Under the pieces are notes generated by a model. The model saw nothing but the letters and a program-made list of their open reading frames with translations, was not told where the DNA came from and ran no database searches. Shown here in pieces: positions 8,223-13,080 of a stretch of DNA of 20,812 nucleotides. The stretch is from a virus. Taxonomy: Duplodnaviria; Heunggongvirae; Uroviricota; Caudoviricetes. The position numbers and the translations under genes are program-made. The first letter of the stretch is position 1, and the number at the start of each line of letters is the position of its first letter. The DNA lies in IMG/VR virus record IMGVR_UViG_2534681662_000008, positions 1-20,812 of that record; one strand, given 5' to 3'.

Positions 8223-8432
8223 ATGATTTATACGCATGAAATGCTATGCGATGCCCGCCGGGCGTTACATGAACTGATGATCGGACGTGCTGTGGTTTCC
8301 GTCAGCAAGGACGGGCGTCAGGTTCAGTATTCGCGGGCGACAATTGGTGAACTGCGTCAGTATATTGAAGAGCTGGAAAGTGCGCTGGGTGTATCCGGAC
8401 GGCGTCGTGGCCCGGCAGGAGTGGGGCTGTGA
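8223..8432 (+). CDS. W: Head-tail joining protein (lambda gpW-like)
   Basis: 69 aa. ...ARRALHELMIGRAVVSVSKDGRQVQYSRATIGELRQYIEELE...RRRGPAG matches lambda W. GGAGG at 8211-8215. Confidence 0.85.
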   Translation: MIYTHEMLCDARRALHELMIGRAVVSVSKDGRQVQYSRATIGELRQYIEELESALGVSGRRRGPAGVGL

Positions 8433-10000
8433 ACGGGGAACTGGTGGATATTCATGGGCAGCCTTTACGGCAAAGCATGGGATATTCTGGTGGTGGTTCC
8501 GGGTTCGGTGGGCAAATGGCAGAATGGCTGCCTGCACCGGAAAGTGCCGACGTGGCGCTCTTACCTTCCATTCATCTGGGTAACGCCCGCGCGGATGATC
8601 TGGTCCGTAACAACGGTATTGCATCGAATGCAGTGGAAATTCATAAGGATCATATTGTCGGGCACATGTTTCGTCTGAGTTACCGTCCCAACTGGCGCTG
8701 GCTGGGGATGTCGGAAGCAGATTCACATGCTTTTATTGAAGATGTTGAGGCGGCGTGGATGGAATACTGCGATCCGGTGTTTGGTATGATGGATGTGGAA
8801 GGGCGTCGTTCGTTTACCGAATTCATTCGTGAAGGGGTGGGGGTCCATACGTTTAACGGTGAAATTTTTGTCCAGCCCGTATGGGATGCGGAATCCACGT
8901 CATTATTCCGGACGAAATTCAAAACCATCAGCCCGAAGCGTGTCAGTACACCCGGTTATGGTACCAGCGATCGTTTTATGCGTGCCGGGGTGGAAATAAA
9001 CCGACACGGAAAAGCGCTGGCCTACCATGTTCAGGATGATGACTGGCCCGGCTACGGTGTCAGTAAATGGACACGAATTACGGCAACACTGCCTTCCGGA
9101 CGACCGGGAATGATCCATGTGTTTCAGCCACAGGAAGACGGGCAGACCCGCGGGGCCAACCAGTTTTATTCTGTAATGGAGCGTCTCAAGATGCTCGACA
9201 CACTGCAGGCCACGCAACTGCAGTCGGCGGTGGTTCGCGCCATGTATGCCGCCACGATTGAATCCACACTGGATTCGGAAAAAGCGTTTGAATATATCGC
9301 CGGGGTGGGAGATGGAGGTAAAAATCCCCTGAACACCATCATGAAAGGCTACGCGCGTTATTACGCCACCAATACGGTAAAACTGGGCGGGGTCCGTATT
9401 CCGCATCTTTACCCGGGAGATTCACTGAATCTGCAGACAGCCCAGAATGCGGATAATGGTTTTTCTGAACTGGAAAAGGCGCTGTTACGTTACATTGCTG
9501 CCGGACTGGGTGTGTCGTATGAGCAGCTTTCCCGTGATTATTCACAGGTCAGTTATTCCAGTGCCAGGGCATCCGCCAATGAGTCGTGGCGGTATTTTAT
9601 GGGAAAACGAAAATTTGTGGCCAGTCGCCTGGCGTCACAGATGTTTGCCTGCTGGCTGGAGGAAGCCCTTATTCGTGGTGTGATCCGTCCGCCGAAATCC
9701 CGTTTCTCATTCTGGGAGGCCCGTTCCGGGTGGTGCCGTGCCGAGTGGATTGGTGCCGGTCGCATGGCGATTGATGGCCTTAAGGAAGTGCAGGAAGCGG
9801 TGATGCGCATTGAAGGCGGCCTGAGTACATACGAGAAAGAGCTGGCCCTGATGGGGGATGACTATCAGGAGATTTTCCGCCAGCAGCTACGGGAAACTCA
9901 GGAGCGACAGGCTGCCGGTCTTCCGCGTCCGGTCTGGATAAAGGACGCGTTTCAACAGCAGATCCGACAGACAACGGGAGAAAAAGGCGATGCGCTGTAA
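8429..10000 (+). CDS. B: Portal protein (lambda gpB-like)
   Basis: 523 aa with collinear similarity to lambda B (...FYSVMERLKMLDTLQATQLQSAVVRAMYAATIES...LLRYIAAGLGVSYEQLSRDY...). GTG start at 8429 overlaps the W stop; GGAG lies 8 nt upstream. Confidence 0.9.
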   Translation: MNGELVDIHGQPLRQSMGYSGGGSGFGGQMAEWLPAPESADVALLPSIHLGNARADDLVRNNGIASNAVEIHKDHIVGHMFRLSYRPNWRWLGMSEADSHAFIEDVEAAWMEYCDPVFGMMDVEGRRSFTEFIREGVGVHTFNGEIFVQPVWDAESTSLFRTKFKTISPKRVSTPGYGTSDRFMRAGVEINRHGKALAYHVQDDDWPGYGVSKWTRITATLPSGRPGMIHVFQPQEDGQTRGANQFYSVMERLKMLDTLQATQLQSAVVRAMYAATIESTLDSEKAFEYIAGVGDGGKNPLNTIMKGYARYYATNTVKLGGVRIPHLYPGDSLNLQTAQNADNGFSELEKALLRYIAAGLGVSYEQLSRDYSQVSYSSARASANESWRYFMGKRKFVASRLASQMFACWLEEALIRGVIRPPKSRFSFWEARSGWCRAEWIGAGRMAIDGLKEVQEAVMRIEGGLSTYEKELALMGDDYQEIFRQQLRETQERQAAGLPRPVWIKDAFQQQIRQTTGEKGDAL

Positions 10001-11606
10001 TTTATCACATATTGCCGCGATGGCATTTAATGAGCCGCTTTTACTGGAACCCGCCTATGCGCGGGTTTTCTTTTGCGCACTGGGTAAGGAGATGGGGGCG
10101 GGCAGCCTTGCCGTTCCGCAGCAGGCCGTTCAGCTTGATGCCGATGGTATGCAGCTGGAGGTTACCGATTATATGACTGGTGGTCCGCGTCCGGTAAAGA
10201 GTTACCAGGTGAAAAATGGTATTGCCATTCTGCCGGTGAGCGGCACGCTGGTACATAAAATGGGTACCCTGCAGCCATATTCCGGTATGACCAGTTATGA
10301 CGGTCTGACTGCCCGTCTTAAGTCAGCGGTGAACGACCCGGATGTACGCGGCATTTTACTGGATATCGACAGTCCGGGCGGTCAGGCTGCCGGGGCGTTT
10401 GACTGTGCTGACATGATTTACCGTCTGCGGGAACAGAAGCCCGTGTGGGCGCTGTGTAATGACATGGCCTGTTCAGCCGCCATGTTGCTGGCGGCGGCCT
10501 GTACGCGTCGGCTGGTCACGCAGACGGCAAAAATTGGTTCGATTGGGGTGATGATGGCGCACACCAGTTACGAGAAACAACTGGCACAGGAAGGCGTGGA
10601 TATCACGCTGATTTACTCCGGGCAGCACAAGGTTGACGGCAACAGTATTCAGGCGTTGCCGACAGGTGTGCGTGCGGATTTTCAGCGCCGTATTGATGAT
10701 GCCCGCCGGATGTTTGTCGACAAGGTGGCACTTTATACGGGGCTGAGTTCAGAGGTGGTGATGAATACCGAGGCTGCCGTTTATGACGGTCAGGCAGGCA
10801 TTGATACAGGCCTGGCTGATCAACTGATTAATGCTGCAGATGCCGTTGATGTAATGGTTTCTGCTCTGAACGACTCTGTTACACAGGAGAATACGATGAC
10901 ACCAAAAAATCTCACCGTTGCTGAAGCGGTGTCCCAGGAAAATCAGCGCGTGATGGGGATCCTGAATTGTCAGGAGGCGAAAGGACGCGAAAAACTGGCG
11001 CAGATGCTGGCAGGTCAGCAGGGAATGTCAGTTGAGCAGGCAAAAACATTACTGGCAGCGGCACCGGCAACCGGCACGGCAAGTTCCGGCGATCAAATTA
11101 TTGCGTTGCCGGAAGCAAAAGGACGTGAACAACTGGCACGGACGCTGGCTGAACAGCCGGGAATGACGGTGGAGCAGGCGAAAACGTTACTGGCAGCGGC
11201 ACCGGCAACCGGCACGGCAAGTTCCGGCGATCAAATTATTGCGTTGCCGGAAGCAAAAGGACGTGAACAACTGGCACGGACGCTGGCTGAACAGCCGGGA
11301 ATGACGGTGGAGCAGGCGAAAACGTTACTGGCAGCGGCACCGGCAACCGGCACGGCAAGTTCCGGCGATCAAATTATTGCGTTGCCGGAAGCAAAAGGAC
11401 GCGAAAAACTGGCACAGGCGCTGGCTGAACAACCGGGAATGACAGTGGAGCAGGCGAAAACGCTGCTGGCAGCTGCGCCATCAGTATCGCAACCGTCACA
11501 GGTAACACTTTTTGAGCGCTTCATGGCACAGCATGCCGCCAGTGCCGTTTCCGGTGGCGGAACTGCCGGGAACGGGGAAAAAGAACTGCTGATGAGTATG
11601 CCGTAA
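9990..11606 (+). CDS. C: Head maturation protease / minor capsid protein (lambda gpC-like, S49 peptidase family) with an expanded C-terminal scaffold (Nu3-like) region
   Basis: 538 aa. N-terminus MAFNEPLLLEPAYARVFFCAL and the core ...ILPVSGTLVHKMGTLQPYSGMTSYDG...GILLDIDSPGGQAAGAFDCADMIYRLRE...TGSIGVMMAH match lambda C. The C-terminal third carries 46-aa tandem repeats. Confidence 0.9.
   Translation: MRCNLSHIAAMAFNEPLLLEPAYARVFFCALGKEMGAGSLAVPQQAVQLDADGMQLEVTDYMTGGPRPVKSYQVKNGIAILPVSGTLVHKMGTLQPYSGMTSYDGLTARLKSAVNDPDVRGILLDIDSPGGQAAGAFDCADMIYRLREQKPVWALCNDMACSAAMLLAAACTRRLVTQTAKIGSIGVMMAHTSYEKQLAQEGVDITLIYSGQHKVDGNSIQALPTGVRADFQRRIDDARRMFVDKVALYTGLSSEVVMNTEAAVYDGQAGIDTGLADQLINAADAVDVMVSALNDSVTQENTMTPKNLTVAEAVSQENQRVMGILNCQEAKGREKLAQMLAGQQGMSVEQAKTLLAAAPATGTASSGDQIIALPEAKGREQLARTLAEQPGMTVEQAKTLLAAAPATGTASSGDQIIALPEAKGREQLARTLAEQPGMTVEQAKTLLAAAPATGTASSGDQIIALPEAKGREKLAQALAEQPGMTVEQAKTLLAAAPSVSQPSQVTLFERFMAQHAASAVSGGGTAGNGEKELLMSMP
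10896..11606 (+). CDS. nu3: Candidate internal in-frame scaffolding protein (lambda Nu3-like) translated from within C
   Basis: In-frame ATG at 10896 preceded by AGGAG (10885-10889). In lambda, Nu3 is the in-frame C-terminal part of C. ...ENQRVMGILNCQEAKGRE... matches the lambda Nu3 motif ENSRIMGILNCEEAHGRE (recalled). Confidence 0.4.
   Translation: MTPKNLTVAEAVSQENQRVMGILNCQEAKGREKLAQMLAGQQGMSVEQAKTLLAAAPATGTASSGDQIIALPEAKGREQLARTLAEQPGMTVEQAKTLLAAAPATGTASSGDQIIALPEAKGREQLARTLAEQPGMTVEQAKTLLAAAPATGTASSGDQIIALPEAKGREKLAQALAEQPGMTVEQAKTLLAAAPSVSQPSQVTLFERFMAQHAASAVSGGGTAGNGEKELLMSMP
10973..11472 (+). repeat. Tandem direct repeat array, 138-bp unit, about 3.6 copies (in-frame 46-aa repeat in C/Nu3)
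   Basis: Copies at 11111-11248 and 11249-11386 are identical. The copy at 10973-11110 is diverged in its first half. A partial diverged copy starts at 11387. Protein unit: EAKGREQLARTLAEQPGMTVEQAKTLLAAAPATGTASSGDQIIALP. Confidence 0.85.
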
Positions 11607-11646: not shown

Positions 11647-11982
11647 ATGATTAAAACCACCACAGAAAAGCGCGCGGACGGGCGCATTTTTGCCGGAAGC
11701 GATCCGGTATATACCGCAACAGGTACCAGTGGTATCAGTGTTGCCACGCCTTCACTGACGCCACTGATGCTGGATGACGCCAGCGGAAAACTGGTGGCAT
11801 GGGATGGTCAGAAAGCCGGAACGGCTGTGGGGGGGCTGGTACTGGCGCTGGCCGGGACCGAGCCCACACTGACGTACTACAAAAGTGGTACGTTTGCCAC
11901 CGAATCGCTGGTCTGGCCGGATTCGGTGGATGCGGTGAAAAAAGCCAACGCGTTTGTGGGAAGTGCCATCAGCCACGCCTGA
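11647..11982 (+). CDS. D: Head decoration protein (lambda gpD-like)
   Basis: 111 aa; AGGAG at 11633-11637. ...SDPVYTATG...TPLMLDDASGKLVAWDG...YYKSGTFATESLVWPD...AFVGSAIS matches lambda D. Confidence 0.85.
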   Translation: MIKTTTEKRADGRIFAGSDPVYTATGTSGISVATPSLTPLMLDDASGKLVAWDGQKAGTAVGGLVLALAGTEPTLTYYKSGTFATESLVWPDSVDAVKKANAFVGSAISHA

Positions 11983-12051: not shown

Positions 12052-13080
12052 ATGGGGTTATTTACCACGCGTCAGTTGCTCGGCTACACCGAGCAGAAAG
12101 TGAAATTCCGTGCGCTGTTTCTGGAGCTGTTTTTTCGTCGTACGGTCACTTTCCATACTCAGGAAGTGATGCTGGATAAAATCACTGGAAAAACACCGGT
12201 TGCGGCATATGTGTCTCCGGTTGTGTCAGGTAAGGTACTGCGCAGTCGTGGTGGTGAAACCCGCGTGTTACGCCCCGGCTATGTTAAACCAAAACACCGG
12301 CTGGATTATCAGCAGGCGGTGGAGCGTCTTCCGGGGGAAGATCCGGCCCGTCTTAATGACCCGGCCTACCGTCGCCTGCGTATTCTGACTGACAACCTGA
12401 AACAGGAAGAGCAGGCGATTGTGCAGGTGGAAGAAATGCAGGCGGTCAGCGCTGTTCTGCAGGGTAAGTACACCATGAGCGGTGAACAGTTTGAGACGGT
12501 GGAAGTGGATTTTGGACGTTCTGCCGCCAATAACATAACGCAGGCAGATGGACGCGAATGGTCAAAACAGAATGTTGACACCTTTGATCCGACGCATGAT
12601 CTGGATGCGTACTGCGATTTTGCTTCCGGTACCATCAATATTGCGATTATGGACGGTACTGTCTGGCGTATGCTGAACGGTTTTAAGCTGTTTCGTGAAA
12701 AACTGGATACCCGCCGTGGCTCAAAATCTGAACTGGAAACCGCGCTGAAAGATCTGGGTTCCGTGGTTTCTTTTAAAGGTTATTACGGTGATCTGGCCAT
12801 CATGGTGGCGAAAACAACGTATGTTGATGAAAGCGGGGATGAGCAGCGCTATCTGCCGGAAGGCACACTGATTCTTGGAAACACTCAGGTGGATGGTGTC
12901 CGTTGTTATGGCGCAATCCAGGATAACCAGGCGTTGAGTGAAGGGATCACCTCTGCAATTCGTTATCCGAAACACTGGTTAGAGGTGGGGGACCCGGGGT
13001 GCGAATATACCATGACGCAATCTGCGCCGTTGATGGTGTTGCCGGATCCGGACGCGTTTGTGGTAGTTAAGGTGAAATAA
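12052..13080 (+). CDS. E: Major capsid protein (lambda gpE-like)
   Basis: 342 aa, collinear with lambda E (...VSPVVSGKVLRSRGG...PGYVKPKH...DPAYRRLRI...EEQAIVQVEEMQAVSAVLQGKYTMSGE...LDTRRGSKSELETALKDLG...TMTQSAPLMVLPDPDAFVVV). AAGGA ribosome-binding site. Confidence 0.95.
   Translation: MGLFTTRQLLGYTEQKVKFRALFLELFFRRTVTFHTQEVMLDKITGKTPVAAYVSPVVSGKVLRSRGGETRVLRPGYVKPKHRLDYQQAVERLPGEDPARLNDPAYRRLRILTDNLKQEEQAIVQVEEMQAVSAVLQGKYTMSGEQFETVEVDFGRSAANNITQADGREWSKQNVDTFDPTHDLDAYCDFASGTINIAIMDGTVWRMLNGFKLFREKLDTRRGSKSELETALKDLGSVVSFKGYYGDLAIMVAKTTYVDESGDEQRYLPEGTLILGNTQVDGVRCYGAIQDNQALSEGITSAIRYPKHWLEVGDPGCEYTMTQSAPLMVLPDPDAFVVVKVK

Follow-up and report, generated by a model that had tools for sequence, protein, structure and literature searches.

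A four-unit Nu3-type motif array in the gene C homologue of an Escherichia coli lambdoid prophage: age, homogenisation and a possible capsid-binding role

The stretch of viral DNA analysed here (20,812 nucleotides; IMG/VR virus record IMGVR_UViG_2534681662_000008, Caudoviricetes; hereafter the window) is the entire Escherichia coli draft contig AQDT01000025.1 of a 2013 assembly, and it carries a gene C homologue whose scaffold-encoding 3' region contains a tandem array of four copies of a motif that occurs once in the C protein of phage lambda. In our interpretation, to which we give a probability of roughly 0.6, this is an old, selected four-unit array that has been homogenised by internal recombination and that most likely acts as a multivalent capsid-binding module common to the prohead protease and to the scaffold protein nested in its frame.

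Layout, age and homogenisation of the array

Tandem Repeats Finder, a check that an earlier note on this DNA had proposed, returned a single strong tandem array at positions 10973-11473 (period 138, 3.6 copies, 93% matches, 0 indels, score 834), and a second repeat search gave the same 138-bp register (231 nt present three times at a spacing of 138). Division of the array into 138-nt units shows that unit 2 (11111-11248) agrees with unit 3 (11249-11386) at 138 of 138 positions, just as the earlier note had said of the two central copies, and unit 1 has 16 mismatching positions with respect to both. An exact run of 215 nt (11049-11263) reappears at 11187-11401, and this recurrence excludes chance. 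The array is in frame with the open reading frame (ORF) 9990-11606 (538 aa), the only long ORF covering it; no other overlapping ORF of at least 60 aa was found. With a hidden Markov model (HMM) of the motif, four 36-aa copies were recovered (aa 324-359, 370-405, 416-451 and 462-497; 72-76 bits each), separated by three 10-aa linkers which in the window are identical (ATGTASSGDQ). The consensus of the window copies reads I[IL]xxxEAKGRExLAxxLAxQxGM[ST]VEQAKTLLAAAP. The elements of the array, with the evidence for each and their correspondence to the array of E. coli VG35A2, are as follows.

10973-11473, + strand: array as delimited by Tandem Repeats Finder, 138 bp, 3.6 units (also second repeat search and unit comparison)
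10959-11066, + strand: motif copy 1, aa 324-359, ILNCQEAKGREKLAQMLAGQQGMSVEQAKTLLAAAP (HMM, 76 bits; equals VG35A2 unit 1)
11067-11096, + strand: linker 1, ATGTASSGDQ (pLDDT, a per-residue model confidence, below 50 in the full-length model; DNA equals VG35A2 linker 3, not VG35A2 linker 1)
11097-11204, + strand: motif copy 2, aa 370-405 (HMM; corresponds to VG35A2 unit 2)
11205-11234, + strand: linker 2, same as linkers 1 and 3 (unit and VG35A2 comparison)
11235-11342, + strand: motif copy 3, aa 416-451, same as copy 2 (HMM; equals VG35A2 unit 2 one unit over, not VG35A2 unit 3)
11343-11372, + strand: linker 3 (VG35A2 comparison)
11373-11480, + strand: motif copy 4, aa 462-497 (HMM; 99% identity to VG35A2 unit 4)
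11481-11603, + strand: conserved, single C-terminal tail, …LFERFMAQH…LLMSMP (alignment; its lambda counterpart is …LDRLM…LLNTPV)

The age of the array was assessed by searching 5,426 complete E. coli genomes with the 1-kb region, which gave 106 matches, 99 of them at a coverage of at least 80%; units were counted in the 73 full-coverage records listed. All but one of these (72/73) have the four-unit length (989-1000 nt), the remaining record, PapRG-04-4, having 862 nt, a C protein of 492 aa and three units, and they comprise lineages 83-87% or 95% identical to the window. Of the window's own 90% cluster (470 members) 15 were listed; the 11 complete ones are all 538 aa long with four copies, and several present different mosaic patterns while still having four units. 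In VG35A2 and E41 all four units differ from one another: their paralogous motif parts show a proportion of synonymous differences (pS) of 0.46-0.56 against a nonsynonymous proportion (pN) of 0.11, with a pN/pS of about 0.2 in every copy, and the unit of VG35A2 nearest to unit i of E41 is again unit i. Because pS is high and pN low, and because the orthology of units is kept between lineages, these comparisons indicate that the four-unit array is old, predating the split of the VG35A2 and E41 lineages and being ancestral in the lineage of the window, and that purifying selection acts on the protein sequence of every copy.

What happened more recently can be read from the comparison of the window with VG35A2, made across the array at offsets of 0, ±138 and ±276 nt. 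The flanks of the two arrays are 99-100% identical and the arrays themselves 86-95%, and the differences resolve into a clean block mosaic: if the units (H) and linkers (L) of VG35A2 are written H1-L1-H2-L2-H3-L3-H4, the window is H1-L3-H2-L3-H2-L3-H4. Unit 2 has thus taken the place of unit 3, and linker 3 that of linkers 1 and 2, through a minimum of two or three unequal exchanges or conversions inside the array; L2-H3 may, for example, have been lost, H2-L3 duplicated and L1 converted. The central units are accordingly identical because an array that already had four units underwent internal unequal crossing-over or gene conversion, and the recent event is a homogenisation within this old array, not an expansion. 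The earlier note had taken the identical copies as a sign of recent expansion, which does not agree with four units being ancestral (72 of the 73 listed records), nor with relatives whose units have diverged at roughly half of the synonymous sites. Its further suggestion of repeat-number variation was right in that such variation exists, as PapRG-04-4 demonstrates, but the variation is rare. The finding of various mosaics in which the count stays at four argues that exchange within the array is frequent and that selection may act on unit number or length.

The same data bear on the view that the array is a recently expanded neutral variable-number tandem repeat, a slippery low-complexity stretch of drifting copy number and no functional meaning. 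The identity of units 2 and 3, the three-unit allele of PapRG-04-4 and the in-frame partial deletions seen in the phage 21-type proteins P0042, P0043 and P0049 would all fit such an element; we nevertheless consider it quite unlikely, since four units recur across lineages that are only 83-87% identical, the paralogous units diverged long ago (pS about 0.5) and are constrained in every copy, their orthology has been kept between lineages, and even recombinant alleles still have four units. The frequent copy-number polymorphism of a hypervariable repeat is likewise absent from the listed records, among which three units occur once.

It is very unlikely, in our estimation, that short-read mis-assembly or polishing gave rise to the number of copies or made units 2 and 3 identical. 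Several circumstances would make such an error conceivable: the window corresponds to one entire draft-assembly contig, the exact repeated run of 215 nt exceeds the typical length of short reads, and the exact allele is present in none of the 5,426 complete genomes. About 40 of 120 database homologues are moreover labelled 'partial', many of them on contigs shorter than 3 kb and several ending inside the array, so that the assembly trouble foreseen by the earlier note is plausible for the family, and the array can be regarded as a break point for short-read assemblies of E. coli prophages. Against an error in this particular case, the exact 538-aa protein occurs on 18 contigs, the eight places shown being in seven NCBI assemblies and one ENA metagenome; of the seven loci that remain when the window is set aside, six have exactly its array DNA and the seventh (L018) is one base off, and in five of those six the flanks, compared position by position, show more than 200 differences. 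It is also improbable that a unit was falsely added, because assemblers would collapse repeats rather than expand them, and four units are the norm in the complete genomes of relatives.

Two of the loci encountered deserve separate mention. L018 (GCA_038737065.1, JAGIHB010000034.1, 5063-5820) encodes the same C protein, followed by an E gene cut to 70 aa and then by a shortened Z (175 aa), with FI and FII missing, and represents a deleted, presumably defective prophage. The 306-kb plasmid record of E. coli STEC711 (NZ_CP041417.1) has a partial match to the gene C protease at 305626-306181, reaching the end of the record, and this strain has a chromosomal copy of the gene C region too.

Gene C, the nested scaffold frame and distribution of the motif

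The frame that contains the array and the genes around it are listed below.

9990-11606, + strand: gene C homologue, 538 aa, with N-terminal S49 prohead protease and C-terminal scaffold region (ORF, translation, Pfam, homology)
10885-10889, + strand: Shine-Dalgarno sequence AGGAG, 6 nt before an internal in-frame ATG (read from the sequence)
10896-11606, + strand: putative nested Nu3/gp6-like scaffold frame, 236 aa, in the C frame (homology to annotated phage 21 gene 6)
8429-10000, + strand: portal protein, lambda B family (Pfam Phage_portal_2, 3e-95)
11647-11982, + strand: head decoration protein, lambda D family, 111 aa (Pfam HDPD, called gene)
12052-13080, + strand: major capsid protein, lambda E family, 342 aa, the presumed binding partner (Pfam Phage_cap_E, 4.4e-64, called gene)

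The ORF 9990-11606 is a gene C homologue in the late operon of a lambdoid prophage, given its S49 domain (Pfam Peptidase_S49, PF01343, at aa 146-290; E 7.7e-33, with 114 bits where 24.9 is the cut-off) and its place downstream of Nu1- and A-type terminase genes, between the portal gene and the D- and E-type capsid genes. Its product is 58-67% identical to gp5 of phage 21 and its relatives and 54% identical to lambda C, and with 538 aa against 439 it exceeds the latter by 99 aa, in keeping with the difference of about 100 aa quoted in the earlier note. The S49 N-terminal half, the gene position, the internal in-frame start and the C-terminal motif with its tail are all those of the lambda gpC/Nu3 family, including the C-terminal pattern ENxRxxGIL…EAxGRE…PGMTV…LAAAP.

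Position 10896, which the earlier note had given as the beginning of the repeat, is instead an internal ATG after AGGAG, the array beginning at 10973. This ATG is the likely start of a nested Nu3/gp6-like scaffold, as judged from its counterparts: AGGAG(G) followed by ATG is found at the homologous site in lambda (Met309), in phage 21 (annotated ribosome-binding site and gene 6 start) and in Gifsy-1. From this conserved start the nested frame measures 236 aa in the window, 200 aa in phage 21 and 131 aa in lambda. In PHROG, the nested frame is matched over four stretches by each of the families for head scaffolding, capsid assembly and head maturation protease. Genes of this kind are labelled merely 'S49 family peptidase' by annotation pipelines, and the nested scaffold gene is overlooked. 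As regards lambda itself, GenBank places the start of nu3 at Met239 (J02459.1, 1297-1902; 201 aa), where a Shine-Dalgarno sequence is lacking; the AGGAGG and ATG conserved with phage 21, Gifsy-1 and the window lie at Met309 of C, and give 131 aa.

By one and the same HMM the motif is present once in lambda C (aa 364-399 of 439, 74 bits), three times in phage 21 gp5, three times in Gifsy-1 and four times in the window, so that the fourfold in-frame occurrence of the lambda Nu3/C C-terminal motif claimed in the earlier note holds. The phage 21 record M81255.1, found by tblastn of phage genomes, annotates in gene 6 the repeat regions 'Tri1 box', 'Tri box' and 'Tri3 box' ('function unknown; putative'), and these three boxes are the three HMM matches; Tandem Repeats Finder detects no DNA repeat there, the copies being too diverged. 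The repeat was reportedly first recorded by Smith & Feiss in 1993, with the head gene operon of phage 21.

No match to the array was obtained when megablast was run over 50,697 phage records, and relatives were found at the protein level only. A genome-contig scan yielded five loci, of which the motif-bearing ones are all of the three-copy phage 21 type and the one from Pseudoalteromonas is without the motif. With a single unit as query, phmmer returned 86 matches among 1.84 billion representative proteins, mostly with one copy, situated near the C-terminus of proteases of 430-550 aa or in stand-alone proteins of 130-200 aa, and none with more than three genuine copies; a match with four stretches (P0193) was rejected as an unrelated LTPEQIQSL repeat protein, and a hit to the encapsulin cargo EncD (NCBIfam, 24.6 bits, the cut-off being 120) was set aside as compositional. 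The motif occurs in several PHROG families (head maturation protease, head scaffolding protein and capsid assembly protein), with two copies in stand-alone proteins of the alphaproteobacterial genus Bradyrhizobium and one in a fusion to a ClpP-type protease. Its columns E27, A28, G30, R31 and E32 are invariant across proteobacterial phages, and by alignment no element of the family is better conserved. Since motif proteins linked to a ClpP-type protease (P0120) or free of any protease (P0116) are still encoded directly upstream of D-like and E-like genes, the motif appears tied to the E-type capsid rather than to the S49 domain.

Some members of the family have less usual settings. On Bradyrhizobium chromosomes (L024 and L025, 4001-4492) the two-motif proteins, of 163-200 aa, are encoded between small-terminase-like and tape-measure genes, with a 297-aa neighbour that neither Pfam nor PHROG matches, and none of the genes seen at these loci could be recognised as portal, protease or E-type capsid. 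In P0020 and P0041 an unrelated N-terminus is joined to the repeated Nu3 region, namely a DPPY-type DNA methyltransferase fragment and a TrmD-like sequence (PF01746), respectively; these may be real recombinants in which the protease domain has been replaced, or chimeric contigs.

Predicted structure and proposed role of the units

The AlphaFold2 model of the whole 236-aa Nu3-like protein has unit helices with pLDDT of 65-80 and linkers below 50 (overall pLDDT 59; predicted template modelling score, pTM, 0.20), and thus predicts helical units on disordered linkers with no global fold. The first 60 residues, modelled from a 45-sequence alignment, reach a pLDDT of 83.6 and a pTM of 0.63 with helices at residues 8-23, 32-39 and 46-55; copy 1 and its preceding helix are accordingly predicted to form three helices, two longer ones and a short one before a loop. 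In the later units the first helix is reduced to a stub (GDQIIAL). The full-length model was rejected for fold searching as too floppy, and the 60-aa unit model matched generic three-helix bundles and nothing more specific, for which reason homology to the scaffold domain of phage P22 is not claimed. A search of PDB sequences with the Nu3 part returned nothing meaningful (an oxidoreductase at an E value of 0.41).

We propose that each unit most likely serves to dock on the inner face of the shell of E-type capsid protein. Carried on flexible Ala/Gly/Thr/Ser linkers, the units would provide the scaffold and the protease that share them with covalent multivalency, so that a single chain of either could bind three or four subunits of the capsid, and the same contacts would recruit the protease. 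Lambda Nu3 interacts with E, with C and with itself and is needed for the portal to be incorporated (PMC3224144), and the helix-turn-helix of the P22 scaffold binds the N-arm of the coat protein 1:1 (PMC9965877). A role at the capsid is further supported by the motif proteins with a ClpP-type protease or none, which still adjoin D/E-like capsid genes. That the repeat may alter the assembly of procapsids, as the earlier note suggested, is plausible.

Several points weigh against this proposal or qualify it. The capsid-binding element could instead be the non-repeated C-terminal tail, and the motif could act in oligomerisation or portal binding. Multivalency is not essential to the family, because lambda works with a single copy. 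As to the homogenised allele, its best match among the complete E. coli genomes is 95.6% identical, and because it is missing from them the count of the identical unit rests on draft assemblies.

A different division of labour would make the units spacer, oligomerisation or protease-cleavage cassettes, which set the length or degradability of the scaffold, and would leave capsid binding to the unique tail. The tail (FERFM…LLMSMP) is indeed conserved from lambda to the window phage and is never repeated, and a long unstructured spacer stands in lambda where the window protein has its extra units. In herpesviruses it is the extreme C-terminus that binds the capsid protein. The self-association of lambda Nu3 (PMC3224144) would be in line with an oligomerisation cassette. 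We give this explanation a minor share of credence, for the motif is what is most conserved in the family, with its five invariant columns, so strict a constraint on sequence is unusual for spacers, and the motif accompanies E-type capsid genes whichever protease is attached.

An action at the level of nucleic acid, either through a regulatory RNA or DNA element or through a motif that is a helix-hairpin-helix DNA binder, is hardly credible. The units do give weak Pfam matches to T2SSK, HTH_15 and Bac_DNA_binding, and 'QPGMTVEQAKTLL' loosely resembles a helix-hairpin-helix, but no Pfam stretch passes alone and only T2SSK (28.5 bits) is at its curated cut-off, the GhG hairpin of the helix-hairpin-helix family is lacking, Rfam finds nothing in the array, and no second ORF of at least 60 aa overlaps it. 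The DNA of relatives differs at synonymous sites while the protein is conserved, and selection therefore acts on the protein.

Returning to the docking proposal, one extension of it is that unit number itself is selected as the valency of scaffold and protease for the capsid lattice, the number being kept at four in this lineage, three in the phage 21 and Gifsy-1 types and one in lambda even though recombination inside the array is frequent. This is tentative and, we think, improbable; if it were true, an altered unit number would change procapsid nucleation, fidelity or protease loading, and the locus would be a natural allelic series for the way in which scaffold valency controls capsid assembly. 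Alternatively, unit number could affect recognition of the scaffold domain by host defence, given that a type I cyclic-oligonucleotide-based anti-phage signalling system (CBASS) can be triggered by the scaffold domain of a prohead protease (bioRxiv 10.1101/2023.05.21.541620). Disorder prevails in scaffold proteins, and for lambda there is little understanding of the way in which they bind capsid subunits and count them. The occurrence of one, three and four copies of a well-conserved Nu3 motif in closely related head modules offers a ready-made experiment on scaffold valency, and singles out the motif as the part of Nu3 worth structural study.

Other features of the window and comparison with known systems

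Away from the head genes, Rfam identifies an isrK Hfq-binding RNA at 708-784 (71 bits) and a C4 antisense RNA at 812-896 (78 bits). The two RNAs follow closely on the Q antiterminator gene (272-667), and directly downstream of them is an ORF6N-domain gene (931-1536). This cassette of RNAs and ORF6N gene, in the late-promoter region, looks like the c4-ant arrangement of P1/P7 type or the isrK-antirepressor arrangement of Gifsy type. The interval from the ORF6N gene to the holin gene contains two phage-borne tRNA genes, tRNA-Thr(UGU) at 1834-1909 and tRNA-Gly(UCC) at 1913-1987.

Among known scaffolding systems, P22 gp8's helix-turn-helix at the C-terminus (PDB 2GP8) can be regarded as a functional analogue for capsid docking, being likewise a small helical hairpin with which a mostly disordered scaffold ends. 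It differs in having one domain per chain, valency through oligomerisation and no attached protease, and no relationship of sequence or fold to the motif was detected. The herpesvirus pair UL26/UL26.5 is organised in a comparable way, since a protease and an abundant scaffold share a C-terminus through an internal in-frame start and both are capsid-targeted, whereas the proteins are unrelated and the targeting element is not tandemly repeated.

Closer to the window stand lambda gpC and gpNu3, with which it shares the S49 domain, the internal in-frame start, the common C-terminus, the motif followed by the tail, and the gene order B-C-D-E. Unlike in the window, the lambda motif is single and follows a spacer of about 55 aa, and the C (439 aa against 538) and Nu3-like proteins (131 against 236) are shorter. 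Finally, genes 5 and 6 of phage 21 have the tandem motif in the same gene and position, within the scaffold region, together with a nested gene 6 start and its ribosome-binding site. Their three copies are diverged and their linkers of unequal length (11-14 aa), in contrast to the four copies, strict 138-bp period and two identical units of the window, which thus has the several tandem motifs within the gene 6 frame that mark the Tri-box type, though four of them in place of exactly three. The array is therefore a repeat of a known kind, the Tri boxes of phage 21 with one copy more, in a well-known gene family, and not a new system.

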